From a virus, in the IMG/VR virus record IMGVR_UViG_3300021141_000001: a stretch of 64,000 bases of DNA; one strand, given 5' to 3'. The stretch's first letter is position 1, and every line of letters starts with the position of its first letter. The position numbers and the translations under genes were made by a program. The notes under the pieces are model-generated. The model was not told where the DNA came from. It saw only the letters and a list, made by a program, of their open reading frames with translations, and ran no database searches. This document shows positions 6,068 through 64,000 of this stretch, piece by piece.

Positions 6068-6457
6068 ATGATAAAGAATTTTAATTTATTTAACGAATCT
6101 AAAAAAGACAAATTTCCTAATATTCAAAAATTAGAAATAGAAGGATTTGTTGTTTATGTTGGTAAAGATGCTAAATCTAATGATCATTTGACATTTAATG
6201 TTGCTGATAAAGAAGATATTTGGTTCCATGTTAAAGGTGTTCCAGGTAGTCACGTTGTTATTCGTGTAAGAGAAAATTTACCTACAGAAACTGTTATTAA
6301 ATCCGCGGCACAATTGGCTAAAAAGAATAGTAAAGGATCTAAAGAATCTAGTGTAACTGTTGTTTATTGTCAAAGAAGATTCGTTAAGAAAGAATCAGGT
6401 ATGAATGATGGTCAAGTTAAAGTAGATTATACAAATTCATATCAAATTGTAGTTTAA
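6068..6457 (+). CDS. Stand-alone NFACT-R (DUF814) RNA-binding domain protein with CTS-like leader
   Basis: VYVGKDAKSNDHLT, DIWFHVKGVPGSHVVIR, AAQLA; ATG 6068 follows TAATATATA at 6055-6063. Confidence 0.85.
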   Translation: MIKNFNLFNESKKDKFPNIQKLEIEGFVVYVGKDAKSNDHLTFNVADKEDIWFHVKGVPGSHVVIRVRENLPTETVIKSAAQLAKKNSKGSKESSVTVVYCQRRFVKKESGMNDGQVKVDYTNSYQIVV

Positions 6458-6492
6458 TATTTAATATATAACATAATAAAATAAATTAAAAA

Positions 6493-7848
6493 ATGGCAGA
6501 TACTAATGAACCTGTAAGAGTTAAATTTTCCGAAGAACTTCATGATTTATTAAAAGTTTTAGAAGATGAGAATAGTTATATCGCATTTGAAATGCTTTGG
6601 CTAAATGAACCTAATTCTAAATATCATAATGGTTTAGGAATTACTGATGTTAATATATCTAAGACAAAATCTTGTTTAGATGTTACATCTAGAGGTAAAG
6701 TACACCCTATGAAAATAGAAAATTTTATTAAATTTTACTTTAAAAATTATTTTCAAACTGCTGATATTCAAGATTTTATTGAACAATATGATATATTATC
6801 AGGTGGTGGTTCGGTTGAAAGTATTGCTGTTAATAGAATTACACCAGAACCTTTTACTTATAATCCTAAAGACGTTAGAAGTACATTTATTTCATTAGTT
6901 ACTAAGACATATCCTCACGGACACGAAGAAGAAGTAATGGCTTTTATGCCTAAATTGGATAAAGATATTGTAGGTAACTATTATAAGATTATTGGCGAGA
7001 ATTCAACAACAATGTTTACGTCTCACTTAGATACTGCTGATAGAAAACAAGGCATTACTAAACTTCTTTCTAAGAAAGATGATAAAGGTGATGAAATTAT
7101 CTATACAGATGGTTCTACTATATTAGGTGCTGATGATAAATCAGGTGTTGCTGTTATGCTTTATATGATGGCTCATAATGTACCAGGTCTTTATTACTTC
7201 TTTATGGGTGAAGAAAGAGGTGGTATTGGTTCAGGTTTATTATCTTCAGTGTATGAACAAGTTGAATATCTTAAAAATATTAAGAGATGTGTTTCTTTTG
7301 ATAGAAGAGATGTTTGTTCAGTTATCACTTCTCAATTAGGCAGAACTTGTTGTTCTGATCAATTTGGAACTGCTTTGGCTAAACAATATAATTCACACGG
7401 TCTTAATTTATCATTAGATCCAGGTGGTATATACACAGATTCTGCTTCATTTATTGACCAAATTCCTGAATGTACTAACATTTCAGTTGGTTATTATAGT
7501 GAACATACTGGTAAAGAAAGACAAAATATCAACTATTTAGAAAGACTTGCTAAAGCTAGTGTAAAAGTAAATTGGGATTCATTACCAACTACTAGAAAGA
7601 TAGGAATTGATGAAGAAACTATTAGAAAATATGGTAAGTTAATTAGTGATATAAAAGCAACACCATTTGGTATTGATGTTAAAATAGCATCTGATAGAGC
7701 TACTACATTTATTCAATGTGATTTAGAAGAAGGTTATATTGATGAAACATATGAGGCTTTAACAACATTACAATTCTTATTAAACAAACACAAAGTAAGT
7801 CAAAAGGTTTATTTTGACGCAGAATACATAAAAATAGATTTACTATAA
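6493..7848 (+). CDS. M28/M20-family zinc peptidase with N-terminal extension
   Basis: SHLDT, LGADDKSG, GEERG, SFDRR, YSEHT metal-ligand motifs. Confidence 0.85.
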   Translation: MADTNEPVRVKFSEELHDLLKVLEDENSYIAFEMLWLNEPNSKYHNGLGITDVNISKTKSCLDVTSRGKVHPMKIENFIKFYFKNYFQTADIQDFIEQYDILSGGGSVESIAVNRITPEPFTYNPKDVRSTFISLVTKTYPHGHEEEVMAFMPKLDKDIVGNYYKIIGENSTTMFTSHLDTADRKQGITKLLSKKDDKGDEIIYTDGSTILGADDKSGVAVMLYMMAHNVPGLYYFFMGEERGGIGSGLLSSVYEQVEYLKNIKRCVSFDRRDVCSVITSQLGRTCCSDQFGTALAKQYNSHGLNLSLDPGGIYTDSASFIDQIPECTNISVGYYSEHTGKERQNINYLERLAKASVKVNWDSLPTTRKIGIDEETIRKYGKLISDIKATPFGIDVKIASDRATTFIQCDLEEGYIDETYEALTTLQFLLNKHKVSQKVYFDAEYIKIDLL

Positions 7849-8294
7849 TGAAACTTAAAAAATTTAATCAATTATTTGAACGTGAGGGTTTTGATGATAT
7901 CGATGGATATGATTATGAAGATGATTACGATTATTCAAGAGAAGATGAATATAAAGGTGATGATGATGATTCAGATGATGATATGTCACATCTTTGTTAT
8001 CTTTTAAGATCCATGTTTAATAATAGTAATGTAGATGTTAATGTTGAAAATAGTGGATTGGATTTATCTATTACAGCTCAATTTGCTAGAAGAGAATCAC
8101 TTAGTGATATTGTTAAAGTATTTGAAATTGTTAGAAAAATTAAAAAAGACGTTTTAGCTCAATATTCTTCTTCTTATGAAATATGGGAAACTAAAACAGG
8201 TACGCCTATGATTACATTTGAATTTATGTTAGAAGACGATGATGATAAAGATGGTGTAGTTACTGATGATAAGAACGATGATTATCCTTGGTAA
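7848..8294 (+). CDS. Acidic hypothetical protein with CTS-like leader (MKLKKFNQLFE)
   Basis: ORF coupled to the upstream peptidase; leader motif. Confidence 0.7.
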   Translation: MKLKKFNQLFEREGFDDIDGYDYEDDYDYSREDEYKGDDDDSDDDMSHLCYLLRSMFNNSNVDVNVENSGLDLSITAQFARRESLSDIVKVFEIVRKIKKDVLAQYSSSYEIWETKTGTPMITFEFMLEDDDDKDGVVTDDKNDDYPW

Positions 8295-8314
8295 TTTTTA
8301 AAATTTCTAAACTT

Positions 8315-8818: not shown

Positions 8819-9322
8819 ATGATTGATAAATTTGAAGGTCGTTATAGATTCTTATCCAACTTCTACCCTTGTACAATAGAACATCAGGGTATTACTTACC
8901 CATCTGTTGAGAACTTTTATGTTGCTATGAAAGTTAATGACCAACAATTAATTAATGGTAAATATTACACACCAGGTGACTTTCGTGAAATGATTGCTAG
9001 AATTTCTAATCCTGCTGAAGTTAAGAAGATTGGTTCTAAAATAAAATTAAGAACTGGTTGGGATGAAAAGAAATTAGAAGTAATGAACTGGGCTGTTCGC
9101 CAAAAGTTCAAAGATGAAACTTTATCTGAAATGTTATTATCTACTGGTGGCCAAGAGTTAATTGAAGGTAACTGGTGGAAAGATTATTTCTGGGGAGTTT
9201 GTAATGGTAAAGGTGATAATAATCTTGGTAAAATTTTAATGACTGTTCGTGAAGAAATTTCTTTACAAAATCAAAAACCTTCAATCGAAGATATAATAAA
9301 AGACAAAAATAAATTAAATTAA
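8819..9322 (+). CDS. NADAR (YbiA-like) ADP-ribose/N-glycosidase family protein
   Basis: FLSNFYP, LLSTG..ELIEGN, DYFWG, GDNNLGKILM..RE. Confidence 0.88.
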   Translation: MIDKFEGRYRFLSNFYPCTIEHQGITYPSVENFYVAMKVNDQQLINGKYYTPGDFREMIARISNPAEVKKIGSKIKLRTGWDEKKLEVMNWAVRQKFKDETLSEMLLSTGGQELIEGNWWKDYFWGVCNGKGDNNLGKILMTVREEISLQNQKPSIEDIIKDKNKLN

Positions 9323-11287: not shown

Positions 11288-11767
11288 TTACCAACCAATA
11301 TGCTCATCAAGAGCTTCTTGTATAGCCGCATTATATGCCTTGTCGTGATCGCTATCACCTTCATCATATCCTATTTCATCAGATACTCTTTTTAATTCCT
11401 GATTAAAAGTATCAATAGATTTTTTGAACTCTTCTTTAAGAGTTTTATATGCTTCAGTTTTTTGAATTTTATTCATTACCTCATAATCAATATGTGATTC
11501 ATTAACAATTGACTCTTCCAATTCTTCAATAGCATCAATCTTATCTTTTATTTCAGCAGGACTTAAATCATCCATCTTACGAGTTGTGTTATTGAATTTA
11601 TATCTTGAATTAGCCATATTCTTTTGTTGGTTATCAGTATTAGGCTTGTTTTGTCTATCCATCTTCTTCAATTCTTCTTTTTCAGCATTAGGATTAGCTG
11701 AGAAGTCTTTGAAGTTAACTACTTTTCTATTTACATTGAATGTAGGTGTGTTATCTTTATAAGTCAT
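11288..11767 (-). CDS. Hypothetical late protein (VVNFKDF CTS-like motif; LEE/VNE putative cleavage sites)
   Basis: ORF; TAATATATA on the minus strand at 11788-11796. Confidence 0.7.
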   Translation of the reverse strand: MTYKDNTPTFNVNRKVVNFKDFSANPNAEKEELKKMDRQNKPNTDNQQKNMANSRYKFNNTTRKMDDLSPAEIKDKIDAIEELEESIVNESHIDYEVMNKIQKTEAYKTLKEEFKKSIDTFNQELKRVSDEIGYDEGDSDHDKAYNAAIQEALDEHIGW

Positions 11768-11890
11768 TTTATAGAATTACTTTTTTGTATATATTAATTG
11801 TCAAATCTCATTTCTTTCATTTTAGAGAGCCGGTTTTTTATATATACTTATGATAAAAAACAAAAATCAAAAAGAGTGTATAATAAAGAT

Positions 11891-14910: not shown

Positions 14911-15450
14911 ATGACAGGATTGGAACACAAGGATGCCTCATTTATTCTACTATCATCTACACGTTTAGATGATATGATATCTATTTTATATGCCAAAGAA
15001 TATCAAGTATTACCCATTAAAGGTTACTACAAGGGTCAATATGAAGACTCTGTAATGGCTTATGGTAAAGTAGATAATGATACTTTAAGAAAAGATGTTC
15101 TTTTTCTTTTAAATCATTTCCATGAAGAATGTGCTATTATTAAATACACTGAAGAAACTAATGCTAAAAAGATATTTAAAGATGGATCTGAGATACCTAT
15201 GGGTATTGTAATGTATAATACAGATTCTGATAATATGTCTTATTTACATAATGGTACATCATTCTCATTTGTTGAATCTAAAAGATATTGGAGACCAACT
15301 AAAAAAGAAGATTTCAGAGTTGGTATGCTAGTTGAATATTTCAATAATAATAAGTGGTTTGAAAAGCTTGTTGAGAATCCTAATGATGAATATGAAAAAC
15401 TTTATAAACTACTTATAAAGTATGATAAAGTTAGAGTTCCTTCTAAATAA
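14911..15450 (+). CDS. Hypothetical protein
   Basis: ORF; TAATATATA at 14898-14906. Confidence 0.7.
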   Translation: MTGLEHKDASFILLSSTRLDDMISILYAKEYQVLPIKGYYKGQYEDSVMAYGKVDNDTLRKDVLFLLNHFHEECAIIKYTEETNAKKIFKDGSEIPMGIVMYNTDSDNMSYLHNGTSFSFVESKRYWRPTKKEDFRVGMLVEYFNNNKWFEKLVENPNDEYEKLYKLLIKYDKVRVPSK

Positions 15451-16970: not shown

Positions 16971-17061
16971 TAAAGAATATTATTTTTTATTTATATCAAA
17001 TAGAATCTATTTGTTTAGTGTATAAGTATTGATACTTTATATATAAGTAATATAAAATGTT

Positions 17062-18735: not shown

Positions 18736-18739
18736 GTGT

Positions 18740-28003: not shown

Positions 28004-28519
28004 TTATTTAGTCTTACTTGAAATCCAAGCACTGGCTAGTATAGAAATAGTTAAGGCCATTGCGCCAGTAAAAACTCCCCAGAAATTATTATTTATAACA
28101 CCACTAACAATCATAAATATTGACAAAATTGGACCTCCAAGTCCAAAAATATATGAAAAGAATTTCAATAATTTCTCTTTAATATAGTCACCAAGACCTT
28201 CTTGAACTGCCTCAAGTTCTTTATCTTTATTTCTCATTATTATTTCTCTATCTAACCACTCTTTTACTAATACTGGATTTGTTAAATCTTCTAAAGTACA
28301 TCCAAACTTTTCAGTTAATTTTTCTAACTCTTCAGAGACTTTTAATTTATCCAAACTATTCATTTTATTTATTATGTCAGTAGTCTCATGCTTAATTTTC
28401 ACATCTTCTTCTTTGTTTAAGTGTAAATCCTCAACATTATATTGATATAAATCTTTATCATGAAAATGTAGATGAGTAGTGTTCTCATTAAATTGTTTAA
28501 AGGTCTTTATTGATTTCAT
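28004..28519 (-). CDS. CTS-leader protein with two C-terminal TM helices
   Basis: MKSIKTFKQFNE; VQE|GLGDYIKEKL; hydrophobic C-terminus. Confidence 0.7.
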   Translation of the reverse strand: MKSIKTFKQFNENTTHLHFHDKDLYQYNVEDLHLNKEEDVKIKHETTDIINKMNSLDKLKVSEELEKLTEKFGCTLEDLTNPVLVKEWLDREIIMRNKDKELEAVQEGLGDYIKEKLLKFFSYIFGLGGPILSIFMIVSGVINNNFWGVFTGAMALTISILASAWISSKTK

Positions 28520-28534: not shown

Positions 28535-30397
28535 TTAATGTGCGTGAACAAAACTATAGAATCCTTTACATACATTCGGTAATAAAGGAGCTTTACTTGC
28601 TAAATTTTTACCCCAAGAAGTCTCTGTAAAGATATATCCAAGAGTTGCTAAAATTAAAAGTATCAGTGATATTGTCTCAAATGCTGCGTGTAATCCAGGT
28701 ATAGCATGTGTGAAAAGAGATACTAAGAAGGCTAAAAGGAGACTACCGGCTCCAATCGCTAATCCTTTCCAATTAATTCCCTTTCCTTCTCCACCTTCTG
28801 ATTCGTTAACTTTTTTGAAATCTTCAAATTTACTCACTCTGGATTCCTTGGCTATGGGAATGCCAACTTCTGCCAAAACTTCTTTAGATTTTTCCACTGC
28901 TCCACCTAGCCCAATCATTTCACCAGATTTCTCAATCCATTCTCCTGGTAAATGTGTCGTTAAGGCAAATGATTCAGCAGCAACTCCTGCTATAAAGCCA
29001 ATTAATGTACCAATCATTGTAAATTTAGCAGCGTATGAAACAAGATTTTTCGCACCTTCATATAAAACCCCTAATTTACCTGATAACCACGCTGGTAAAG
29101 CGGCCATTCCTTTTGCCACAACCTCTCCGAGAATTTCCATAAGTTTTCCAAAAGGTGATAAAACCCATAATACTAAATTTTTAACCCAGCCTTTAATTCC
29201 TCTCGATTCGGTTTTTTTACCTTCTTTTTCAACTTGTTCTTCTGTATTGTCAGCCTCAAATATCTTCTCAATTTTAGTTTCGTGAAGTTTAATGAGTTCA
29301 ATTGTATCAAAATTTCTATTCATTGACATATACCCTTTAAGAGAGTCCCAAATAAAACTATCATTGACAACTTCTTTTTTATCTTCTTTTTCAGGAGTAG
29401 ATTCTTTACCTTCTTCAGAATTTCCTTCTTCTCCTGTCGATAAAATTTTATTAGCCGAAGAACTTGCTACTTCCTCAAATGACCCACCAACCGATCCACT
29501 TATTTCACCTCTGAAATATTTCACCATATCTTTGACATCCGCACCAACTGTCTTCACTTCTTCGCCTAATTTAGTGGCATCTACTTTTTCCCCTAATTTT
29601 GTCATTTTCTGAAGTTTAGGCTTCAACCCTGGTAATACTTTTACAGCATGTGTTTTTATGAAACCCCAAACTTTCATCAATACTTCTTTAATCTTAGCCC
29701 AAATCTCTTTAACTATATTAGCAATTTTTTGTGCAAAATCCTTTAATGAGGCATAAACTCCGTCAAATATAGATTTGGATGTTTTCATAAAATCATCAAT
29801 TGAATTGAGAACCTTTTTTGCGGTTGTTTCAATAGCAGCTACTACTTCTGGACCAAATAGTTTTGTTGCTACATTTTTAAGAGCCTCAAGTCCAGGTTTG
29901 AAAATATCTTCAACAATAGAGTCCCAAACAACTTTAGCACTTGAAGAAAGAAAGTTCCAAATCTTAGATAGACCTTTTTTAACAACTTCAGTTCCTGCAT
30001 TTACCTTATCTTTAATCCAATCTACTAAACCTTCACTCATTATAATTGACTCTAAGTTTTCCTCAATTAATTTTATATCAGCTTCTGAAATGTTTTTACT
30101 TTCTAAATAAGTTCTTGTTTCTTTTGCAATATCTTTTATTCCGTCTTGATAAAACTTAGCACACACCATGTTCTTAGTATCCTGAAGTAATTCCTTATCT
30201 TCTAGAATAAGACCATAACTTTCATTGATTCTTATGTTATTTTTAAGATGAATTGTTACAACATCATGTTTTTTACCTTCATAGCAGATTGATTCAAATT
30301 CTCTTATCTTCATATCATTAATGAAACTAATCTTTTGGGCTCTTTTAGTAGCCATTTGCTTTAAGTAAAAATCATTGTATCGATTAAGTCTTGCCAT
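28535..30397 (-). CDS. Large CTS-leader protein with amphipathic helices and TM segments (putative virion-internal)
   Basis: MARLNRYNDF; MSE|GLVDWIKDKV; internal KESRVSKFEDFKKVNE; TAATATATA at 30422-30430 (minus). Confidence 0.7.
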   Translation of the reverse strand: MARLNRYNDFYLKQMATKRAQKISFINDMKIREFESICYEGKKHDVVTIHLKNNIRINESYGLILEDKELLQDTKNMVCAKFYQDGIKDIAKETRTYLESKNISEADIKLIEENLESIIMSEGLVDWIKDKVNAGTEVVKKGLSKIWNFLSSSAKVVWDSIVEDIFKPGLEALKNVATKLFGPEVVAAIETTAKKVLNSIDDFMKTSKSIFDGVYASLKDFAQKIANIVKEIWAKIKEVLMKVWGFIKTHAVKVLPGLKPKLQKMTKLGEKVDATKLGEEVKTVGADVKDMVKYFRGEISGSVGGSFEEVASSSANKILSTGEEGNSEEGKESTPEKEDKKEVVNDSFIWDSLKGYMSMNRNFDTIELIKLHETKIEKIFEADNTEEQVEKEGKKTESRGIKGWVKNLVLWVLSPFGKLMEILGEVVAKGMAALPAWLSGKLGVLYEGAKNLVSYAAKFTMIGTLIGFIAGVAAESFALTTHLPGEWIEKSGEMIGLGGAVEKSKEVLAEVGIPIAKESRVSKFEDFKKVNESEGGEGKGINWKGLAIGAGSLLLAFLVSLFTHAIPGLHAAFETISLILLILATLGYIFTETSWGKNLASKAPLLPNVCKGFYSFVHAH

Positions 30398-33168: not shown

Positions 33169-33711
33169 ATGAGATATTTAAAAACTTATGAATCATTTTC
33201 AACAAACGAAGAGTTCTTAGGTGGACTTTGGAACAAAATTAGTTCAGCATTCGCTAATTGGAAAAATGAAAAATTGAAAAATGCTGGTGAAAAACTAGCT
33301 AAGGCAATTGAAGAAAAGAAAGACCAACCAGAAATGGCTAAGGCTCTTGCTGACTTAAAATCTGCTTATGCTTCTTTACCACAAGAAGATAAAGCTAAAA
33401 TTGAATCACTTAAAGATGAGAAAAATATTCCTGTTCATACTGAAGCTTCTACAGAAGAAGAAATAATGGCTGAATCACTTCTTCTTGAAGAAGAAGGATT
33501 AGCTATGAAAATTATTGGTTGGTTAGGTTTATCTGCTAGTGCTATTTCTTTTGTAACTTTAATCGTTACTGTTGTTCAAATAGCAATCGCTGGTTCTGGT
33601 TTCCCACTTACATTATTTGGATTATCATTAGGTACTTTAGGTGCTATCTGTATGGTCGCTGTGATGGTATTTGGTATCGGTGGTAGTATGGCAATGGAAT
33701 ATGCTGACTAA
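33169..33711 (+). CDS. CTS-leader protein with two TM helices
   Basis: MRYLKTYESFSTNE|EFLGGLWNKI; LEEE|GLAMKIIGWL; TAATATATA at 33136-44. Confidence 0.72.
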   Translation: MRYLKTYESFSTNEEFLGGLWNKISSAFANWKNEKLKNAGEKLAKAIEEKKDQPEMAKALADLKSAYASLPQEDKAKIESLKDEKNIPVHTEASTEEEIMAESLLLEEEGLAMKIIGWLGLSASAISFVTLIVTVVQIAIAGSGFPLTLFGLSLGTLGAICMVAVMVFGIGGSMAMEYAD

Positions 33712-35669: not shown

Positions 35670-38060
35670 ATGGAAATTAAAAAGTTTTCTGATTTTGAAT
35701 ATCTTAACGAAGAAGAGAATCTTTGGGGTAATATAAAATACGGTCTTAGTAAACTAGGTAGATATAAAGCTAATGGTAAAATCTTTGGTAAAGGCGAAAC
35801 TGATAAAAAAGCCGCTGAAGAAATTGGTAGAATTATGGGTAATACTACTAATGCTGCTCTTAGTGCTGTTTATGATAAAGTAAAAGAAAAATCACCTGAG
35901 TGGCCCAATGATAAAAGTAGAGTTGCTTTTTTAAGAGGTGTTTTAATGTATGGTCAATTCTATGACTCTATTGTTGCTGCCGCTGAAAAAAGTCCAGAGG
36001 AAGAAGGATATTTAGATCCAGAAGTTGCTAATAAACTTATTGAGAATACAAGAAAGGTTGTTAAAAAAGCATTAGATACTGATTTAGCGGCGGTTTATTC
36101 TGTGATGGATTCTAATAATTCTATTGATTTAAACAAAGAAGAATTACTTTTTGAAGAAATATTTAATTTAGAAAATGAGCCTATTAATGAGGAGTTCTTA
36201 AAGAAGTTAGGTCAGTTAAAAGACAAAGCTATGGATGCTCTTTTTGGTAAAAAAGATGAAGATTCAGAAGCTAGAAAAGCTGGAAACAGACAATCTGCTA
36301 AGTTACAAGGTGCTGGAGACGACAACGTTGTTGATAGTGAGAGAATGAAAACTCTTAAATCTAATAAACTTCCTTTAATTTTAGCTGGAGTTGGTGGTGC
36401 TTTAGGTGCTATTGGTTGGATTGCTCAAACTCAATGGTTTAAAGACTTAATTACTACAACAATTAAACACCCTGCTCAGTTTGGTGAGAAAACATTTACA
36501 ACTACTGTTGAGAATAATCTTAAAGTAGATCCAAAAGGATGGTCATATACTATTCAAAATAATGGATTTATGGATGCTACTGGTAAATCATTGAATTTCA
36601 ATCAACCAGTTGGTAACTTAAAAGACGCTTTCAGTTTCTATGGTGGTGGTGATCAGGCAAAAGGTATTGAAGCTATGTCGAGCTTCTTAGGAGGTGGCGG
36701 AAAAGCTTCTTCTGTTGCTGATATTACTAGTCAATTAGCAAATCCAGCAAATAAAACAGTTGGTGATATTTTTAATCATCTTGAAGGAACTTGGGGAGAT
36801 AACGTTTTAATGAACCAAAATGGTGGTGCTAAAAGTTTTATTGCTAAACAAGTTTATACTCAAACTAAAAAAGTTTTAATTAGAGCTGGTTTTACAACAA
36901 CTACAACATCTGCTGCTGGTAGTTATTTAATTTCAATAGCTCCTGTTCTTTCAGCTTTAGGTATTGCTCTTATTGGTGCCGGTGCTGTTGTTAAATTATT
37001 AAGAGAAAAAGGACAAAGACAATCAAGAGCTAAAACTCTTAACGATTTATTACAATCATTAGTTTTAGTTAAAATAACAGATAAAAATAAATCTAAAGGT
37101 GAAGAAGAAGGAACTGGAAAAGATGAAGAAATAAATACTACTGATGTTCCAACTGAAAAGTCAATTTATCCTTTAATGATTAAAAACCTTACTCAATTAA
37201 AAAGTTTAATTATTACTTCTGCTGGTGTTAAACTAGAAGGTGAAGGTGGTGATAAAGGTGCTGGTAATATTAAAATTGGTAAAGAGTATTACTTTACAAA
37301 TAAAAAAGGAGATAAGAAAAAAGTTAAAGTTATTTCATTAACACACGATACAACAGTTGGTAAAGATAGAACTTGGTTAACTAAAGATGATGTGAAACAA
37401 ACAACTTTATCTAAAGGAAAAGCATCTGTTATCTTCAAAGATAAAAAAGGTGAATATACTGCTAGTTCTCCAGAAATGGCTGTTAATTTTGACCAATTAA
37501 GTCCAGTTAAAGAGTCAATCTCAATTAGTAAGTTTGATGATATCGTATTAGAAGATAAAAAAATTGGTACTCAAAGAAATGTTGAAGTAACTAAAGGTGA
37601 AGATTATTTAACACAAGCAGTTTCTAATATTAGAAAATCTCTTAAAAGTATTGTTGATGAGAAAGATAAAGGAGTTGGAATAACTGAAGATTTTATACAA
37701 GCTATACTAGACAAGAAAATGGATTCTGAAACTAAAGCTCCAGTTAAAGAATTATACGCTGAAGTTTATGATTATTTATATGGTAAAAAGGCTAGCACTT
37801 TGGGAGATTTTGCTCCTTTGTATAAAGAAAGTGTTGATGTTATATCTAACAAAGGTAAACGTCAAGTAGTAGCTGAAAAAATGGCGAGATTTACAAAAAG
37901 ATCTTTACAATTTGAAGGTGAAGGATTCTATGGTGGAATGGGTGAGTTTGGTGCTGACTTACAAGATTTTAATAAGTCATTCAAACAAATTATGAGTTAC
38001 TTCAAAGAAAAGAAAGACGAAGTTAAAGAAAGTAAAATTTACAAATTCAAAGATATGTAA
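35670..38060 (+). CDS. Large CTS-leader protein with TM helices (putative virion-internal)
   Basis: MEIKKFSDFEYLNE; two hydrophobic Gly-rich helices; motif repeated internally and at the C-terminus; TAATATATA at 35640-48. Confidence 0.72.
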   Translation: MEIKKFSDFEYLNEEENLWGNIKYGLSKLGRYKANGKIFGKGETDKKAAEEIGRIMGNTTNAALSAVYDKVKEKSPEWPNDKSRVAFLRGVLMYGQFYDSIVAAAEKSPEEEGYLDPEVANKLIENTRKVVKKALDTDLAAVYSVMDSNNSIDLNKEELLFEEIFNLENEPINEEFLKKLGQLKDKAMDALFGKKDEDSEARKAGNRQSAKLQGAGDDNVVDSERMKTLKSNKLPLILAGVGGALGAIGWIAQTQWFKDLITTTIKHPAQFGEKTFTTTVENNLKVDPKGWSYTIQNNGFMDATGKSLNFNQPVGNLKDAFSFYGGGDQAKGIEAMSSFLGGGGKASSVADITSQLANPANKTVGDIFNHLEGTWGDNVLMNQNGGAKSFIAKQVYTQTKKVLIRAGFTTTTTSAAGSYLISIAPVLSALGIALIGAGAVVKLLREKGQRQSRAKTLNDLLQSLVLVKITDKNKSKGEEEGTGKDEEINTTDVPTEKSIYPLMIKNLTQLKSLIITSAGVKLEGEGGDKGAGNIKIGKEYYFTNKKGDKKKVKVISLTHDTTVGKDRTWLTKDDVKQTTLSKGKASVIFKDKKGEYTASSPEMAVNFDQLSPVKESISISKFDDIVLEDKKIGTQRNVEVTKGEDYLTQAVSNIRKSLKSIVDEKDKGVGITEDFIQAILDKKMDSETKAPVKELYAEVYDYLYGKKASTLGDFAPLYKESVDVISNKGKRQVVAEKMARFTKRSLQFEGEGFYGGMGEFGADLQDFNKSFKQIMSYFKEKKDEVKESKIYKFKDM

Positions 38061-38065
38061 AAAAG

Positions 38066-38093
38066 AAACCTCTGAGAAATCAGAGGTTTTTTT
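38066..38093. terminator. Bidirectional terminator (variant of 11251-11280)
   Basis: AAACCTCTGA-GAAA-TCAGAGGTTTTTTT. Confidence 0.85.
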
Positions 38094-38736
38094 ATACCTT
38101 AACAGGTGTGAAATCAAAGTTAGGTAATTTTTCTCGAACTACTTTAGTAGCTCTTTTAATATATTTAGCATTGTCATCATAGAAGATAGCTTTTTGAAAT
38201 CCTGTTTCATTTATTATTTCTACTATTCTTTCACCTTTCCAATGTCCAGAATTTTTTGTTCCATTTGGAGCCATATGTAAACCGTATTTAGGTAATTCTA
38301 ATCCTAAGTCTAATAATGTTCTAGTTATCTTATTTCTTAGTGATTCTTCTCTAGCTGTTACTATACATTTATTTTCAACTGATTTGTATAATTCTGAAAG
38401 ATCTTTTAATGTACTTGGTAAACTTAAATCTGATAAGTGAAAAGCATTTGGAGTGAACATATATAATCTATCTCCTTTTCTAACCCAGTTACCGAACTCT
38501 TTAAGCTCTTTATTAGGGTCAAGTACATAGATTCTACCATCTTGCCATTTTAGGTCGTCTAATGTAACGCCTACTCTATTTATAGATTGATTTAATAAGT
38601 CTTTGATTGTTATATCTTCCTTTAGATAATTTATAGCTAATTCATCAAAACTTGGCGAATTCACAAGCGTGTCATCAAAGTCAAAAATGTAAAGCACATT
38701 CTCGCTTGTAAATTCATTGTAGTTTTTAATCTTCAT
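38092..38736 (-). CDS. HAD-superfamily phosphatase with CTS-like leader
   Basis: LYIFDFDDTL (motif I), IVTAR (II), WKG (III), FYDDN (IV); leader MKIKNYNEF. Confidence 0.8.
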   Translation of the reverse strand: MKIKNYNEFTSENVLYIFDFDDTLVNSPSFDELAINYLKEDITIKDLLNQSINRVGVTLDDLKWQDGRIYVLDPNKELKEFGNWVRKGDRLYMFTPNAFHLSDLSLPSTLKDLSELYKSVENKCIVTAREESLRNKITRTLLDLGLELPKYGLHMAPNGTKNSGHWKGERIVEIINETGFQKAIFYDDNAKYIKRATKVVREKLPNFDFTPVKV

Positions 38737-38911
38737 ATTCAAAAAATATATCTATAATATCTTGAAACTCTTTTCCAAAGTGTTTAAGACATAGTGTATA
38801 TATTTCTTCTTTCAACTCATATCCTTGTGAAAAAAGTTGGTGTACATAAGTTTCTATATCATCAACAGATGTATAGATGTTAAATTCGTCATAATCAGGT
38901 ACTAATAGCAT
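38726..38911 (-). CDS. Small hypothetical protein
   Basis: ORF; TAATATATA at 38934-42 (minus). Confidence 0.6.
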   Translation of the reverse strand: MLLVPDYDEFNIYTSVDDIETYVHQLFSQGYELKEEIYTLCLKHFGKEFQDIIDIFFEYED

Positions 38912-40738: not shown

Positions 40739-41272
40739 TTATTTCTTTTTTGCTTCAATTGCTTTTCTTAATCCTTCAGGTAATTTAGATTGTGCTTTAG
40801 ATAAACCTTTAGTTTCCTTCTTATCATCTTTCTTATCATCTTTAGCGTCTTTAGCCGCTTTTTTCATAGATTCTTTTTTGTTACCATCTTTGTCTAAGTC
40901 TAAAAAGTCAGGTTTAGCTTTTTTGCCACCTTTTTCTTCTTTATCTTCTTTCTTATCAGCTTTTTTACCAGCTTTTTTATCTAAGTAAGCTTGAAAACCA
41001 GCGTTGATTTTTTTTCTCTCAACTACTTCGTCACCCCAAACTCTACCTCTTTCTTCTTCTCTTTCATCTTCGTAAGTATCTTCTTCTTCAGATTCTTCTC
41101 TTTCTTCTAATTCTTCTTCCTCTTCTTCAGAGTTGAAAATTTCTTCTTCTTCTTGATCAAAAGCTTGCTGATTTTCAGCAGGATTAGTCATAAGATTTTT
41201 ATTTTCCTCTTCTTCAGAGAATCTACCTAGGTCATGACCTGTGAAGTTTTCGAATTTTTTTAAGTATTTCAT
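40739..41272 (-). CDS. CTS-leader protein with acidic N-half and basic C-half (prohead core-like)
   Basis: MKYLKKFENF; KPDFLDLDKDGNKKESMKKAAKD motif; TAATATATA at 41298-306 (minus). Confidence 0.7.
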   Translation of the reverse strand: MKYLKKFENFTGHDLGRFSEEEENKNLMTNPAENQQAFDQEEEEIFNSEEEEEELEEREESEEEDTYEDEREEERGRVWGDEVVERKKINAGFQAYLDKKAGKKADKKEDKEEKGGKKAKPDFLDLDKDGNKKESMKKAAKDAKDDKKDDKKETKGLSKAQSKLPEGLRKAIEAKKK

Positions 41273-41402: not shown

Positions 41403-42191
41403 ATGAAGATTCAAAGATATACTGACTATACACTACAAAATGAAATGGCTGAAGAATTCTTAAACTCATTTGATAAAATGGTTAAAGAATCAGATGGTGG
41501 TACATCATATCAAAAAGTCGCTAAAAAAGTAATTTCAGACTTAAAGTTAAATGTTAGTTTAGTTGCCACATTTGGTGCTGGTATTGGTGCTCTTTATCCT
41601 GTTGTTCAAGGATTAATGGAAAATATGAATCTTGATTCATTTATTCTTACACCTGAATCAATTGTTCTATTAACATTATCTTCTGTTACTATAGCATATT
41701 TACAAGAGAAAAAATTCAAATCTGCTGAAGAAGAAGACCAACTAACAAAAGATTCTAAATCTATGTTAGAAGAGTTAAAAATGAAAGGATTTGGAAATGG
41801 TATAGTTAAAAAACTAATCAAAAGTCTAGAATCTGTTAAAAACATATTTTTGGTAATTGGTAAACATATAGGTGCTGTTATTGGTAGTATTGTGGATATG
41901 TTTGCTTATACTTCACTTTTAATTCCTTTATTGAATGGCGTTATGACTATAATACATAAATATGATTTGAATCTAGAAACACTTCCTCAAAATTTTCTAG
42001 GATTGGCTGTTGGTGTTGGTACTATTATAGCTAAACATGGTATTGTAGAAATTATAAACAGAATTAAAAATAAATTTCCTATTAATCCAAAAGAAGTTCT
42101 AGATGATATAGAAACTCCTGCTATTCAAAGATTTGCTACGTTTGGAGACTCAGAAGAGAAACAAGACGGTGATTTAATCAAGGAGCAATAA
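41403..42191 (+). CDS. CTS-leader multi-TM membrane protein
   Basis: MKIQRYTDY..QNE; about four hydrophobic segments; TAATATATA at 41387-95. Confidence 0.7.
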   Translation: MKIQRYTDYTLQNEMAEEFLNSFDKMVKESDGGTSYQKVAKKVISDLKLNVSLVATFGAGIGALYPVVQGLMENMNLDSFILTPESIVLLTLSSVTIAYLQEKKFKSAEEEDQLTKDSKSMLEELKMKGFGNGIVKKLIKSLESVKNIFLVIGKHIGAVIGSIVDMFAYTSLLIPLLNGVMTIIHKYDLNLETLPQNFLGLAVGVGTIIAKHGIVEIINRIKNKFPINPKEVLDDIETPAIQRFATFGDSEEKQDGDLIKEQ

Positions 42192-49987: not shown

Positions 49988-50017
49988 AAAAACCCACTCA
50001 TTTGAGTGGGTTTTTTT
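49988..50017. terminator. Bidirectional terminator
   Basis: AAAAACCCACTC-ATTT-GAGTGGGTTTTTTT. Confidence 0.85.
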
Positions 50018-50738
50018 ATTCGTCTCTAAAAGTATAAGCGTCTATAGAATTAGCAATTTCATCCTCATCTATAGTGAATTGTTTAGTCTTCATATTATAT
50101 GAAGCCACTCCATATAAATCATCACCTAGAAATACACCAACTTCAATATATTCCTCATCATCAGTTGTGTCCATATATCTATCAAAGTCTATATTATCTT
50201 CTTTATAGATTTGTCTTAATCTTTTTAGACCATCTAAGTATTCTTTATCTTGAGATGTTTTGTAAATATCAAATGTATCTTTTAGTTCTTTTGTACTTAT
50301 CTCATCACTTATAAATGATATAGAAAAAGTGTGAATAACTCTTTCGTGTCCTGTTGTTTTATCTAACCAATACTCATTTTTTTCAAGTTTTAATTCTTCC
50401 GCTTCAACTCTATCTATCATTTCATCTACAGATATCTTAATAGTATTTAGATTATCAAGAACTTTATTAAAATCATTTTTACCTGGTATCAAACTGTATT
50501 GAATTTGACAAGTATAAAGTAATCTATATTTTTCATTATCATCAACTTCAGTATTAACGGCGTGACCCTTTGTATCAATTAGATATCTATAGTTACTAAC
50601 TCTAGCAAATTGTTTAACATCAAATAAACTATCATTAAATATATCAGTTGAAATAGCCTTAGATGTTAAGAAGTCCGAATATTGTTGAGATGTTCCAAAA
50701 GACTCTTTAATAAAGTCGTTATACTTTTTAAGTTTCAT
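50016..50738 (-). CDS. CTS-leader hypothetical protein
   Basis: MKLKKYNDFIKES; TAATATATA at 50743-51 (minus). Confidence 0.7.
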   Translation of the reverse strand: MKLKKYNDFIKESFGTSQQYSDFLTSKAISTDIFNDSLFDVKQFARVSNYRYLIDTKGHAVNTEVDDNEKYRLLYTCQIQYSLIPGKNDFNKVLDNLNTIKISVDEMIDRVEAEELKLEKNEYWLDKTTGHERVIHTFSISFISDEISTKELKDTFDIYKTSQDKEYLDGLKRLRQIYKEDNIDFDRYMDTTDDEEYIEVGVFLGDDLYGVASYNMKTKQFTIDEDEIANSIDAYTFRDE

Positions 50739-57160: not shown

Positions 57161-57847
57161 TTACTCTTCTATTTTTTCAAACCACCAATTGAAATAAATG
57201 TAGTTATCACCAACTAGATTGTAATAATCGGTTTCGTATTTAACAACCATTTTATTATCATGAGCTCTAATTAATTCTATTTCAATTCCTTTATCCATTT
57301 TTAACTGTTTACCAGTCTCAGTTGAATAACAATATAACTCATCGTTTAGCAGTTTATACATACCTGGTTCAGGTTTTAGCCAAGATTTAATTGTTTTAAT
57401 AATAAGTCCTTTGATTTTAATAATCCATTCTTTACTTTGATATAAATCAAAATCTTTGAATACTTCTGATGTGAATTCTGGATTAGGACTCATAACATTT
57501 TCAATAACACCCCAATATTCATAATCATCAATTACAAAAGTAATATAAGCGTCATAGAATATACTATTTGATTTAACAATTCTAAGAATTTTCATCTTTT
57601 GAATATCTTGACTTTCTAAACCTAATTTACTTCTTAAATTTTTATAAGCACTAGTACCTGCTAAATTATAAAGAATGTCATTAACTCTTGACATTGCTTG
57701 TCTAATAGCATCTGCGTGTTTATCAAAGGCATTAGTTGATAAAGATGGATCATCAACACCACCAATTGCTCCAGCAGCAGAATCTGGATTCATTCTTTGC
57801 ATGTTAAATTCAGTAAATTCTAAAATAAGTTTATTCTTACGTTTCAT
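57161..57847 (-). CDS. Hypothetical late protein (LILEFTEFN CTS-like motif)
   Basis: ORF; bidirectional promoter upstream. Confidence 0.7.
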   Translation of the reverse strand: MKRKNKLILEFTEFNMQRMNPDSAAGAIGGVDDPSLSTNAFDKHADAIRQAMSRVNDILYNLAGTSAYKNLRSKLGLESQDIQKMKILRIVKSNSIFYDAYITFVIDDYEYWGVIENVMSPNPEFTSEVFKDFDLYQSKEWIIKIKGLIIKTIKSWLKPEPGMYKLLNDELYCYSTETGKQLKMDKGIEIELIRAHDNKMVVKYETDYYNLVGDNYIYFNWWFEKIEE

Positions 57848-57851: not shown

Positions 57852-57867
57852 TTAATATATATATTAA
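57852..57867. promoter_or_regulatory. Palindromic bidirectional late promoter TTAATATATATATTAA
   Basis: Contains TAATATATA on both strands between divergent genes. Confidence 0.65.
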
Positions 57868-57885: not shown

Positions 57886-58203
57886 ATGAAAATTAAAAGA
57901 TTCAATGAAGACGAACAAGTAGATATCTCATCTGAAAGAGTTAGTGAAATTAATGAAGAATTAAAAGACTTTGCTGCTATTATGTTAGATAAATCTAAAT
58001 ATATTGAGTCTCTTCTAAATGAACTTAATAACTTCAGAAGTGATTCTAAAAAAGGTAATGATCAAATAGATGATTCTATTGCGGCTCTTCAAGTTATAAA
58101 GAAAGATGTTGATGATTGTAATGATAAGATTGATACTGTTATCAATAATTTAATGGATTACAATGATGGTGGTAGAAAATATATGTATACCGAAAACAAG
58201 TAA
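57886..58203 (+). CDS. CTS-leader coiled-coil protein
   Basis: MKIKRFNE; heptad pattern. Confidence 0.7.
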   Translation: MKIKRFNEDEQVDISSERVSEINEELKDFAAIMLDKSKYIESLLNELNNFRSDSKKGNDQIDDSIAALQVIKKDVDDCNDKIDTVINNLMDYNDGGRKYMYTENK

Positions 58204-58913: not shown

Positions 58914-59507
58914 TTATTTAGTGAATTTTAGTTTATATACTGTTTGATATATTAAAACTAATATATCGTCAATTATATTTGAAAATTCTGTATCTTCTTC
59001 ATTGAAGCAATTTTTTCTTTCTGATTTGATAAATTTACCCAAATCCATAAAATATTCAATTGGATCTTTTGAGTTAGACTCTTTAGTGTCTATTATATCA
59101 TAACCTTCTATTAGACCATATTGTGCTTGATATATTTCAATTAGTGTATCAAGTGAGTCTAATACTCCACCTTCTCCTTCATCATCTCCTTCATAGTATT
59201 CTTGTAGTGCTATATGTTTAGCATGAGATCCCATATCTCCTTTAACTTGTAGGTGATAAACGTGAGCCATTTGTCTTGATTCAAATATTTTAGATATAAA
59301 TTTTATAACATCATTAGAACCTGGTGTTTCAGAATTTTCTGACTTTTCTTCTTCAGTCTCATTATCTTCAACTTCTTCAGTTTTAGATTGACCAGCCATT
59401 AACTTAATCAATTCTTCTTTTGACATATCTTCGTAATTACCAGGAAGATTTGCTTCTGCCTCGAATATCTTCTTTTTAACTGGTTTAAAATCTGAAAACT
59501 TTTTCAT
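58914..59507 (-). CDS. Ferritin/Dps-like four-helix protein (DUF5856-like) with CTS leader
   Basis: AHVYHLQVKG..SHAKHIALQEYYE, D.LIE.YQ..YG, YKLKF; leader MKKFSDF..IFE. Confidence 0.7.
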   Translation of the reverse strand: MKKFSDFKPVKKKIFEAEANLPGNYEDMSKEELIKLMAGQSKTEEVEDNETEEEKSENSETPGSNDVIKFISKIFESRQMAHVYHLQVKGDMGSHAKHIALQEYYEGDDEGEGGVLDSLDTLIEIYQAQYGLIEGYDIIDTKESNSKDPIEYFMDLGKFIKSERKNCFNEEDTEFSNIIDDILVLIYQTVYKLKFTK

Positions 59508-59550
59508 ATTATTCTTTTTAATTTTATAATTTATATATTAATTTCTAAGA

Positions 59551-59952
59551 TCACTTTAATGTATCTAAGAAATTATCATAATCAAATTTGATTTTTTCTT
59601 TTTTGAATTGAGTTACCATATCATTGGCAATCTCCATTCTATTTTCTTTATCTTTAACTTTTTTTAGAATATCAATAATACCTGAAACCATTTGATAGTC
59701 GTTGTTATCTTTTAATTCAGTCTTTATTTTTGACTTTGACTCAAATATAATAGACTCTTCTATTCTTTTTTCAGTTTGGTCTATATTGTCTATAACATAT
59801 TCGGAACCATATTCTAAAGAAGATAAAATAGAATCTGCTAAATATCCAGCCTCTCCTTCATTTTCAGCTGGTATGATTAACTCAACTTGAGCATCTACTT
59901 TATAGAAACTTTCATTTTCTACTTCTTCTAATATTTTAGTAAATTTTTTCAT
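59551..59952 (-). CDS. CTS-leader hypothetical protein
   Basis: MKKFTKILEE; IEE/IFE putative cleavage sites. Confidence 0.65.
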   Translation of the reverse strand: MKKFTKILEEVENESFYKVDAQVELIIPAENEGEAGYLADSILSSLEYGSEYVIDNIDQTEKRIEESIIFESKSKIKTELKDNNDYQMVSGIIDILKKVKDKENRMEIANDMVTQFKKEKIKFDYDNFLDTLK

Positions 59953-59953: not shown

Positions 59954-61060
59954 TTATTTAGTTTTTATTTTCCCAATTTTATTCATAAGATATCTTCCGT
60001 TTTCATTAAACTCTTTACTCCAATACTCAACAAATTGTTTACAATTCATTTTCTTAAAAGTGTTTATTGGTATAACTGATTTACCTTTTTGTCCTTTTAA
60101 CTCACTCTCATATACTGATACCCACATATCTTTAAGTTTATCAGCAATTTCGTGTTCGTCTTTAGCTCCAACTAATAAAGCATTACCCATATCTCTCAAA
60201 TTATAATGAGATGATATTGTGTTAATTAATGAGTTGTAAAATTCATCAGCATTAAAATATTTCATTTTTTCAGATATTTTGTATATCTTAAACTCTTTTA
60301 AATCTTTATTTGGATACTTATCAATAAAGTAATTGATTTCTTGAATGTTAGCATTCATCTCTTGTCTTTCACTAAAGTAGATGTATGATAAAAAATCTGA
60401 AGTCCATTTATACCAAATTTCTTTAGGAAACTTCCATTTGTTTTTCTCAGCATAGGTAAGAGCAGTATTGAAAGATCTATCATAAATAGGCTTTCTATAT
60501 TCACCTCTTTTAGCACCTTTAATAGTTCTTTTATAATGTTCGTAACAGTGATTTAACTCGTGATATAAAGTTGAGTTTATACCATCTATTAATTCTTGTT
60601 TATTTTCAGGATTATTAATGTCAAAGTTTCTTTTATCTACATCAACACCAACACTTAATTGAATTATTAGACCAACATCAGCAATTTTTCTAGCTGGTTT
60701 AACTATTTTAGAGTAGTTTTTCCAGTTTTTATTTCCAAAACCTGAAGCATATCCACCAATAGCAACGTGATTAGGGTAATCATACATTCCTTTAAATCTT
60801 GATGTAGTCATTTTTTTGAACTCCAATATCAATTCAAATCCAACAACTGGAAAATCAGGATATAAATTTTTATCTATAAATCTAGCTAAGTCTCTGTATT
60901 TAATTTCTACTTTTTCATCTAGTATATTTTCAGTAGATTCTAAAAAATCTAAGAATTTATAATATGTCTTTTTTTGTAAGACATCAGCAAACATAATACT
61001 TGACCTAGATAAGCCATGAGCCTCGTTTATTACGAATTGTTTAAAATTAAAAATCCCCAT
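59954..61060 (-). CDS. CTS-leader protein with HExxH zincin-like motif
   Basis: MGIFNFKQFVINE; LYHELNHCYE...QEMNA; TAATATATA at 61066-74 (minus). Confidence 0.65.
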   Translation of the reverse strand: MGIFNFKQFVINEAHGLSRSSIMFADVLQKKTYYKFLDFLESTENILDEKVEIKYRDLARFIDKNLYPDFPVVGFELILEFKKMTTSRFKGMYDYPNHVAIGGYASGFGNKNWKNYSKIVKPARKIADVGLIIQLSVGVDVDKRNFDINNPENKQELIDGINSTLYHELNHCYEHYKRTIKGAKRGEYRKPIYDRSFNTALTYAEKNKWKFPKEIWYKWTSDFLSYIYFSERQEMNANIQEINYFIDKYPNKDLKEFKIYKISEKMKYFNADEFYNSLINTISSHYNLRDMGNALLVGAKDEHEIADKLKDMWVSVYESELKGQKGKSVIPINTFKKMNCKQFVEYWSKEFNENGRYLMNKIGKIKTK

Positions 61061-61106
61061 AAGTCTATATATTAAAAACCTATGGGGATTTATTGAATTA
61101 TTTATA

Positions 61107-62020: not shown

Positions 62021-62070
62021 TTTTGAGAATTGATAATTAATATATAAAGTGTAAAAATATAAGCTTATAT

Positions 62071-62331
62071 ATGGGAATAATTAAAAAGTTTGATAGTTTT
62101 CTTAGTGAAAAATTAGTTGCGGCAGCACCTGCTCCTGTTACTACACCTACTCCTACGATTACACCAACAACACCAAAACCAAGCAGACCTGGTATTACAC
62201 CAACTGAAGTACCTTCTGAGGAAGATGCTCCTTTAGCTTCTGCTCAAAAAGTAATTGATAGATTTGAATCTGTTTATAATAATGCTTCTGATGAAGATAA
62301 AAAAGAGATTGACTCTTATTTCGAAAAATAA
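62071..62331 (+). CDS. CTS-leader Pro/Thr-rich small protein
   Basis: MGIIKKFDSFLSE; PAPVTTPTPTITP; TAATATATA at 62038-46. Confidence 0.7.
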   Translation: MGIIKKFDSFLSEKLVAAAPAPVTTPTPTITPTTPKPSRPGITPTEVPSEEDAPLASAQKVIDRFESVYNNASDEDKKEIDSYFEK

Positions 62332-62339
62332 TTTTAACT

Positions 62340-64000
62340 ATGAAAAATTTTGAACAATTTATAAAAGAAGAAGTTGATTTAAGAGGCAATACTGGTGTTC
62401 CTGATGACTTTATGAGAAAGTCTGATGAAGAAGCTAGAAAGAATCTAGGTGTTAGACCAGATGACGAGTCTCAAATGAGAAATCTTTGGCCCTCTTTTGA
62501 AGGTGCTATGAGACAATCTCAACAAATTTTATCAACAGGTCCTAATGGACAAAGATTATCCCAACAAGAAGTACAAGAAAGAATTACTAAACTAGAAAAA
62601 CTTGCTGAAAAAGTAGTAAGAGATCAATTTGATGAAATTTTAGATGCTTCTATTAAGCCAATTGAATTAGATATTAAATTAGTACCGATGGGTTCTGTTA
62701 ATAGAGAAATTGAAGATATTAATCAAGTTCCTCAACAAGCTAAACAGCCTACTGAAGAAGAACAAGAAGAACAAGATGAGAGAGATGAGGAAAATCAAGA
62801 ACAAGAAGAACAAACACCTGAAGAAAGAATGGAAGGTGAAGAAACACCAGGAACTGATTTAGTTGCTGCTGTTGAAAAGAAGAAAATTCTTAATATGATT
62901 ACTCAAGCCGCTGGTAAATCTACAAAAGATATTATTAGAGCTTCTGATATTGTTGATGAAGGATTACAGCAAATTTTTGGTGATGGTTATAGAACAATAT
63001 TGAACTTATGGGTTCAAATGTCTGACATTGCTGATAAAATGGATTGGGTTATTCCAATTGATAGAAAAGCAGGTATGATGAAAAATGCGCCGGGTGGTAT
63101 GGCTGGTGCTGTTCAAGTTAAATGGGAAAGTTTTTCAGGTAACTTATATAATATGAACTTTCTTTTAGAAAAAGAAGCTACTAAAATAGTTATTAAATCT
63201 ACAGGTGTTGATTTTCCAATGCTGATTCATGAAACAATTAAAGGTATATTCCTTTTCTTACAGTCTGGTGCTATCAAAAAAGATAAAAAAACAGCGGAGA
63301 TAGTTAAAAAAGCTACTTCATCTTTTATGGATGAGGCTCAAGATTTTAGATATGGTCCTCCAGCTTTACAAATGTTATTACTTTTTGTAAATAAATTCTC
63401 TGAATCTGGTGATTATAAAAGATTAGAAGCCAGAGTATTTACAATGCTGGCTGTTGATAAAGAAAGAGCTATGTCAGAAGCTAAAAATGCTCCTGAAGAA
63501 CATAAAGAACTTTTACAAAAGAAAGCCAATATTGCTAGAACGGATAAAGAATTCTTAGATATTATGAAAAGTATATTCTCAGTATTTGATAGTGTTGAAA
63601 GAGGTGGTAAAATTGAATTCACTGTTAATGAGGAAAAATTCAATACATCTTTGGCTAAAAGAGAAGTTAAAAAGATAATCGATTATATTGTTGAAGATAT
63701 TGAAGATTATAAGAGAGAAATTGAAGAGTGGGAACAAGAACAAAGAGAAAGAGAAGAAGAGTCTAAATATCGTCAAGATGATGAACCTAGTCAATCAGGA
63801 GATGATGAATTTGCTAAACCTGATGAGGCTGAGTCCGATCTTGATGCTTTGATTAAGAAAAGTTTATATGGTGGTGAAGAAGAAAAAGAAACTGGAGAAG
63901 TTGACTATTCCGAATTAACTCAAAGAGAATTACAAGAGTTAATTGACGACGCTTTAGATGCCGGTGATTATAAGAGAGTTCAAATGTTAGCTCAGTATAT
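62340..64000 (+). CDS. Large CTS-leader protein, 3' end runs off the window
   Basis: Manual translation MKNFEQFIKEEVDLRG...FPMLIHETIKG...; absent from the ORF track because no stop lies in the window. Confidence 0.75.
   Translation, partial: MKNFEQFIKEEVDLRGNTGVPDDFMRKSDEEARKNLGVRPDDESQMRNLWPSFEGAMRQSQQILSTGPNGQRLSQQEVQERITKLEKLAEKVVRDQFDEILDASIKPIELDIKLVPMGSVNREIEDINQVPQQAKQPTEEEQEEQDERDEENQEQEEQTPEERMEGEETPGTDLVAAVEKKKILNMITQAAGKSTKDIIRASDIVDEGLQQIFGDGYRTILNLWVQMSDIADKMDWVIPIDRKAGMMKNAPGGMAGAVQVKWESFSGNLYNMNFLLEKEATKIVIKSTGVDFPMLIHETIKGIFLFLQSGAIKKDKKTAEIVKKATSSFMDEAQDFRYGPPALQMLLLFVNKFSESGDYKRLEARVFTMLAVDKERAMSEAKNAPEEHKELLQKKANIARTDKEFLDIMKSIFSVFDSVERGGKIEFTVNEEKFNTSLAKREVKKIIDYIVEDIEDYKREIEEWEQEQREREEESKYRQDDEPSQSGDDEFAKPDEAESDLDALIKKSLYGGEEEKETGEVDYSELTQRELQELIDDALDAGDYKRVQMLAQY

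Follow-up and report, generated by a model that had tools for sequence, protein, structure and literature searches.

The capsid-targeting sequence (CTS) of phage T4 is a 10-residue peptide (PMC8442874) that acts in targeting mainly via residues 4 and 7 and in processing via residues 8 and 10; with Asp at position 10 the peptide still targets but is no longer cut (PMC9026906). Here we describe a leader resembling this sequence at the N-termini of otherwise dissimilar proteins encoded in a 64,000-nucleotide stretch of viral DNA (IMG/VR record IMGVR_UViG_3300021141_000001; hereafter the window). An earlier reading of the sequence (the original prediction) had held that about 19 of its proteins share a T4 CTS-like leader and form a head-packaged cargo set.

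In P2 gpO and lambda C/Nu3, protease and scaffold are fused or encoded by nested genes, and the scaffold part is degraded at maturation. Encapsulin cargo peptides usually sit at the C-terminus, bind directly to the shell protein and stay on the cargo; as short terminal peptides that send unrelated enzymes inside an HK97-fold shell, and that make cargo predictable from sequence, they parallel the role proposed here, but have no sequence relationship to the leader. In phiKZ, 201phi2-1 and SPN3US, gp21-related proteases cut after Glu, with dozens of head proteins, some of them ejected, and propeptides thought to direct proteins into the prohead; these propeptides are mostly longer than 100 residues and lack one common consensus (PMC5694885). 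Their cleavage motif, (S/A/G)-x-E or A-x-E, also differs from the sites described below, where P3 (two residues before the Glu) is hydrophobic. Assignment of the tagged proteins to phiKZ-like internal head proteins was considered and rejected: the tags are short, P3 is of the wrong kind, and the sole phiKZ_IP match, in one protein, reached 16.1 bits against a cutoff of 27.

The window is phage DNA of 29% G+C, whose proteome is rich in K, N, F, I and Y, and is part of an uncultured phage of roughly 0.6 Mb. The closest public records, with about 77% nucleotide identity over parts of the window, are the uncultured phages LR756502.1 (642 kb) and LR745206.1 (635 kb), both assigned in one study to the clade that contains the largest phages known (PMC9723777). 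At the capsid protein, identity to the nearest public relatives is 69%.

A shared N-terminal leader

A simple pattern, [KRNTI][FY][NSEDTK][DEQNKSL][FYL] within the first 16 residues, was found at the N-terminus of 13 of the 70 open reading frames (ORFs) of the window, against 14 of 1037 interior 16-residue windows, a 14-fold enrichment (binomial p=1e-11). In LR756502.1 the pattern is present in 72 of 956 ORFs, compared with 1.7% of interior windows (p=8e-25). A position-specific scoring matrix (PSSM) was then trained only on the leaders of the whole LR756502.1 genome, so that the motif was not fitted to the window. LR756502.1 has 64 strong N-terminal matches and only 21 across all other six-frame positions, and the window has 12 strong N-terminal leaders scoring 12.5-21 bits, the next score being 5.2. 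The leader is a real and statistically solid N-terminal tag. The genes with strong leaders are listed here; a gene begins at the first coordinate on the plus strand and at the second on the minus strand, and "promoter" gives the position of the motif TAATATATA, described below.

6068..6457, plus: NFACT-R domain protein (Pfam 7e-18); 18.9 bits; promoter at 6055
7848..8294, plus: acidic protein without family match; 18.1 bits; second gene of the unit headed at 6462
28004..28519, minus: protein without family match; 19.5 bits; follows the gene of the 620-amino-acid protein in one late unit
28535..30397, minus: 620-amino-acid protein with hydrophobic C-terminus; 12.5 bits; promoter at 30430; internal leader-like copy at about residues 517-534
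33169..33711, plus: protein with two hydrophobic segments; 19.2 bits; promoter at 33136
35670..38060, plus: 796-amino-acid protein; 18.8 bits; promoter at 35640; internal and C-terminal K-E-S..K-F-x-D copies
38092..38736, minus: HAD-like protein; 17.8 bits, leader immediately ahead of HAD motif I (FDFDDT); second gene of the unit headed at 38942
40739..41272, minus: tagged protein; 13.8 bits; promoter at 41306
50016..50738, minus: tagged protein with the strongest leader, Y-x-x-F-I-K-E; 21.0 bits; promoter at 50751
59954..61060, minus: tagged protein with a bare HELNH motif at residue 167; 13.6 bits; promoter at 61074
62071..62331, plus: tagged protein, F-x-x-F-L-S-E; 18.6 bits; promoter at 62038
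62340..64000, plus: tagged protein whose gene runs past the window end; 13.6 bits; T4 register M-K-x-F-x-x-F-I-x-E

The estimate of about 19 proteins thus divides into these 12 and seven with weak or variant leaders, most of which keep the motif in their LR756502 orthologue:

11288..11767, minus: variant with the motif shifted to residues 16-22, at the true N-terminus in the LR756502 orthologue; promoter at 11796
38726..38911, minus: weak variant D-Y-D-E-F; promoter at 38942
41403..42191, plus: weak variant R-Y-T-D-Y, with His at the second aromatic position in the orthologue; promoter at 41387
57161..57847, minus: variant L-I-L-E-F-T-E-F, kept in the orthologue; promoter at 57866
57886..58203, plus: weak truncated leader K-R-F-N-E; promoter at 57853
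58914..59507, minus: DUF5856 protein with weak leader K-K-F-S-D-F; promoter at 59540
59551..59952, minus: weak variant K-K-F-T-K-I-L-E-E; follows gene 59954-61060 in one unit

Among the LR756502 leaders the conserved stretch is about 10 residues, M-K-(H/Y)-(I/L)-K-(K/T)-(F/Y)-x-x-(F/Y), with a weak excess of Glu just after it and no information content beyond position +8. The full tag comprises 10-14 residues with the consensus M-K-x-(I/L)-K-(K/T)-(F/Y)-x-x-(F/Y)-(I/L/V/N)-x-E. Further copies had been reported inside proteins and at C-termini; their number is about that expected by chance, although three, in the otherwise dissimilar 620- and 796-amino-acid proteins, share the extended form K-E-S-x-x-(S/Y)-K-F-x-D. 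The window also encodes DNA polymerase B, two helicases, ribonucleotide reductase, thymidylate synthase, Fpg and two DNA methylases, and none of these has a leader, as had been said of the replication genes.

The leader is tied to one class of transcription unit. Of the 20 copies of TAATATATA in the window, 19 lie 4-29 nt upstream of an ORF start, including that of the capsid gene. All 12 strong leaders occur in units headed by this motif (eight in the first gene behind it and four in the next gene of such a unit), whereas none of the 44 genes outside such units has one (p=9e-7), which bears out and sharpens the statement that most leaders lie behind the motif. The promoter class was tested in LR756502 with homologues of structural and replication proteins of Tenacibaculum phage PTm1, the nearest cultured relative with a virion proteome (capsid 28% identical). 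The motif stands upstream of the neck, baseplate and two other structural homologues, with near-matches before terminase and sheath, and was not found before the single-stranded DNA-binding protein, helicase or ribonucleotide reductase; its placement before structural and not replication genes suggests that it behaves as a late promoter. The PHROG matches of 117 genes with the promoter only were mostly to collagen-like tail fibres; a PHROG search of nine other late genes gave nothing informative.

Several features show that the leader acts at the protein level, since codon choice among synonyms in its conserved columns is that of the genome as a whole, F and Y substitute for each other freely, and its spacing from the Met differs by a few residues. 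In an AlphaFold model of the NFACT-R protein the predicted local distance difference test score is 97-98 in the domain and below 50 for residues 1-11, and two NFACT-R homologues begin directly at the domain and have no leader; as modelled, the tag is a disordered appendage outside the NFACT-R fold. Diverged NFACT-R homologues keep the leader and the E-SKK junction, the Glu before S-K-K being conserved whether the tag or another domain lies upstream, fused forms included. One such fusion was observed in LR756502.1 at about 229240-229940, where the NFACT-R gene lies in frame behind a domain of about 105 residues and retains the leader at an internal position that directly follows an I-K-E site. 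This arrangement hints at polyprotein-style processing.

The tag is also modular. When 63 tagged LR756502 proteins were scanned, most matched nothing and each Pfam family appeared only once (RNA ligase, NUDIX, SET, GNAT, ankyrin, methyltransferase, RNase T and DHH), and tagged proteins show no similarity to one another beyond residue 14. Eight of 20 window proteins tested have no detectable homologue in LR756502, and the tagged set therefore turns over quickly. Homologues of the HAD-like protein that are at least 87% identical have an invariant aromatic pair, with Glu12 alternating with Asp, and seven homologues at this level of identity bear a wholly different version of the leader, which points to an exchange of leaders through recombination or to very rapid evolution constrained at the level of the motif. 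The functional labels first given to the cargo fared unevenly: the NFACT-R assignment is secure, but HAD is based on motif I only, the "ferritin-like" protein is a DUF5856 protein and nothing further, and the "HExxH" protein has just the bare HELNH. Searches of the PDB by sequence with the DUF5856 and HAD-like proteins, and of a protein atlas with the 620-amino-acid protein, returned nothing informative. Against Pfam and PHROGs, the 620-amino-acid protein had only weak, sub-threshold matches to phiKZ_IP (0.0068) and tape-measure PHROGs.

Comparison with the T4 sequence and a repeat-bearing protease

The aromatic pair of the leader, (F/Y)-x-x-(F/Y), occupies the positions equivalent to residues 4 and 7 of the T4 CTS, and the CTS itself scores 10.4 bits on the huge-phage PSSM (p=2e-4 per position). 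In a blind test, the PSSM was run over 100 kb of the T4 genome, comprising 943 Met-starts, and the internal proteins IPIII, IPII and IPI ranked 4th, 5th and 7th. As IPII and IPIII share one leader, these were counted as two independent matches (p ~5e-5). Alt, gp23 and gp24 ranked 34th, 27th and 22nd. The resemblance to the T4 CTS that had been proposed by eye thus holds in an independent test.

The end of the leader also resembles that of T4, its (I/L/V/F)-x-Glu corresponding to CTS residues 8 and 10. In 47 of 64 LR756502 leaders the second aromatic is followed by a Glu at a distance of at most four residues, against 23.5% expected (p=4e-17), and 43 of 55 cases have I, L, F or V at P3, so that the ending appears to follow the (I/L)-x-E rule of gp21. 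The two systems share a short N-terminal peptide, here a candidate propeptide, that is found on proteins with nothing else in common; in it, two aromatics spaced by three residues have K-T or K-K before them and, in many leaders, (I/L)-x-E after them. Also shared are a gp21 homologue with a gp23-type capsid protein, late expression (predicted here from the promoter motif), and cargo genes at variable positions with fast turnover. They differ in that the huge-phage tag usually has three extra N-terminal residues (M-K-x-I/L) and is found on about 17-27% of window genes and about 7% of those of the 642-kb relative, compared with a handful in T4; in that the huge-phage cargo is mostly acidic and includes many enzymes; in that the huge-phage protease is fused to a scaffold that repeats the motif; and in that the huge-phage system is known here from sequence alone. 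The protease and its neighbours are as follows.

2075..4198, plus: gp21-family (S77) prohead protease with scaffold-like C-terminal extension, 707 amino acids (phrog_207, head maturation protease, 2.5e-30)
2938..3375, plus: 42-nt tandem repeat, 10.4 copies, encoding 14-residue units with Y-(S/A)-E-Y-(I/L)-A-E
4242..4250, plus: late-promoter-like motif TAATATATA, 29 nt upstream of the capsid gene
4280..5983, plus: gp23-type major capsid protein without leader (Pfam Gp23 5.9e-28)

The first ~170 residues of the protease align to T4 gp21 (BLASTP E=4e-6) with both catalytic motifs, GE(F/L)(D/N)HP and VSSR(A/G)xG, conserved, and near-identical relatives carry the PF03420 annotation; a sequence search against solved structures found no match. 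The protease has more than 4000 database relatives, of which the best 120 are all at least 86% identical, and the lineage is very abundant in metagenomes. One relative sits on a contig of 816,658 bases.

Counting one upstream of the repeat, there are 11 Y-(S/A)-E-Y-(I/L)-A-E sites at 14-residue spacing, and the repeat is followed by an acidic stretch and then a helical tail. LR756502 likewise has 11 sites and LR756501 has 13, and in LR756500 they are degenerate. The repeat units score 8.8-9.4 bits on PSSM columns 0 to +6 (~5e-4 per position). The strict form, aromatic-x-x-aromatic-hydrophobic-x-E, occurs 20 times in the 20,255 residues of the window proteome, with 11 occurrences in the repeat and three in leaders. 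By these scores the protease-scaffold carries the core of the leader in multiple copies, and the repeats are candidate self-cleavage sites and a likely docking partner or template for the tag. As in P2 gpO and lambda C/Nu3, protease and scaffold function would lie in one polypeptide, but here the scaffold is a 14-residue tandem repeat with a CTS-like motif that also tags separate cargo genes. The T4 scaffold protein gp22 also starts with a sequence resembling the end of the CTS. In LR756500, where few cases were available in a 50-kb sample, His takes the second aromatic position in both leader and scaffold repeat. The capsid protein has (I/M/L)-x-E-N at about residues 41-44, conserved across four huge phages in an N-terminal alignment that includes T4 gp23, and this is a candidate propeptide cut.

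Probable capsid targeting and its alternatives

We consider it probable, with real room for doubt, that the shared N-terminus is a capsid-targeting propeptide of the T4 type, used on a much larger scale and tied to the repeat-bearing protease-scaffold; the phage probably packs a large and varied protein cargo in its head. Under this reading, genes driven by TAATATATA late in infection would yield cargo proteins with a disordered tag of 10-14 residues, whose aromatic pair, corresponding to Tyr4 and Phe7 of T4, would dock them onto the assembling head core. That core would be built from the protease-scaffold fusion, the putative coiled-coil part of which repeats Y-x-E-Y-(I/L)-A-E 11 times, so that the tag looks like one scaffold unit. 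The gp21-family protease would cut after the Glu of (I/L/V/F)-x-E, shredding the scaffold and freeing the cargo inside the head. From there the cargo would exit along with the DNA. Of these steps, we infer the docking, the cleavage, the retention of cargo in the head and its injection. A more specific version, which we put forward tentatively, holds that the tag is a single copy of a self-shredding scaffold repeat, and that cargo co-assembles with the coiled coil by mimicry and is freed by the very cleavage that breaks down the scaffold.

Most genes of huge phages, which are uncultured, are of unknown function. Should the tag be a true head-loading signal, sequence alone would show which proteins are carried in the virion and are the first to act in the next host, and the tag would yield an extensive list of candidate enzymes for host takeover and counter-defence. 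The T4 CTS would reflect an old and widespread rule, mechanistically linked to the scaffold, rather than a peculiarity of T-even phages. Under the more specific version, the whole packaged and injected proteome of phages of 0.5-0.7 Mb, at least 60 proteins each, including RNA-repair, NUDIX, SET, GNAT and NFACT-R enzymes, could be read from sequence, and the T4 CTS would be what is left, in reduced form, of an ancient general code for head loading. A short portable tag could also serve for loading proteins into capsids.

Several observations weigh against capsid targeting. The best match of the PSSM in T4 is to Rnl2 (rnlB, at 9640 on the minus strand of the T4 piece), which is not a head protein. 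No Glu lies within eight residues in nine of the 64 LR756502 leaders and two of the 12 in the window, and the candidate cleavage Glu of the HAD-like cargo is E/D-polymorphic; an Asp prevents cleavage in T4. Unlike the basic internal proteins of T4, most of the cargo is acidic, and hydrophobic segments occur in several of the tagged proteins. To our knowledge, tagging of about 7% of all genes is far above any packaged set described so far. Two phages with gp23-like capsids showed no tag in the regions sampled, which were the first 50 kb of PTm1, rich in structural genes, and the 50 kb around the capsid gene of Lak-A1. Finally, the case is built on the genomes of uncultured phages.

The top-scoring T4 N-terminus, that of RNA ligase 2, belongs to the enzyme fold; single matches can therefore be false, and the tagged LR756502 RNA ligase needs care. 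Among the other relatives, LR756501 has the tag often (about 12 of the 50 genes around its capsid gene) and LR756500 less often. No protease homologue was found in the 50 kb around the Lak-A1 capsid gene. Three of the 40 ORFs near that gene (at 9240, 35222 on the minus strand, and 46101 of the Lak-A1 piece) share L-(I/L)-E-(N/S)-L-F-D-D-x-D-D at about residues 8-19, which may be that clade's own tag. In the literature we found no paper describing the leader, none linking capsid targeting with huge phages or megaphages, and no virion proteome for these phages, all of which are uncultured; a multi-omics paper on phage G is silent on propeptides.

The tag could instead direct sorting or docking to another late destination (tail, baseplate, assembly factory, compartment, membrane site or dedicated chaperone), its likeness to the T4 CTS being convergent. 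What was shown is co-expression with structural genes and not location in the head, and the hydrophobic segments and the unusually large and enzymatic cargo set would suit such a signal. We nevertheless regard this as unlikely, as homologues of neck, sheath, baseplate, head-completion and terminase proteins lack the tag, while the motif is repeated in the head protease-scaffold, is followed by a gp21-type cleavage ending and picks out T4 head cargo proven by experiment.

Less probable still is that the tagged proteins are transient parts of the core or scaffold, brought into the prohead and then degraded and expelled, as T4 gp22, gp67 and gp68 are, with nothing delivered to the next host. In its favour, the tag is similar to the scaffold repeat, small acidic proteins without family match are frequent among those tagged, and internal (I/L)-x-E sites are common in this AT-rich proteome. 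Against this, folded enzymes are tagged (NFACT-R, HAD-like, RNA ligase, NUDIX, SET and GNAT), and the late synthesis of enzymes just for destruction is hard to explain. That the motif is a nucleotide-level feature of late mRNAs (translation start context or AT-rich codon bias), or a product of paralogy or chance, would fit the low G+C content, the commonness of its residues and its correlation with one promoter class, but is scarcely credible and largely refuted by the enrichment over interior windows of the same proteins, the genome-like variation of synonymous codons, the F/Y interchange and variable Met distance, the loss of similarity beyond residue 14, and the lack of the motif in the capsid gene, the most highly expressed late gene.

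Other genes of the window

Between the capsid gene and a tagged gene lies an M20 metallopeptidase of the peptidase T or tripeptidase-like type (6493-7848, plus strand; phrog_4191 5e-64; PDB 3rza 4e-7), with its own TAATATATA upstream. As a speculation, it might dispose of short peptides freed during head maturation. A NADAR domain protein without leader is encoded at 8819-9322 (plus strand; Pfam 1e-24); the NADAR family is linked to ADP-ribose processing. An RNase II/R-type exoribonuclease with cold-shock domains (1-1494, minus strand; RNB 8e-110) adjoins a homing-endonuclease-like gene (1508-1903, minus strand). The window further encodes a Ro60/TROVE protein with a vWA domain (48529-49980, plus strand; Pfam TROVE 3e-17) and a glycosyltransferase gene cluster (15443-23475, minus strand) that includes a 1211-amino-acid protein with GT25, GT2 and GT1-type domains.

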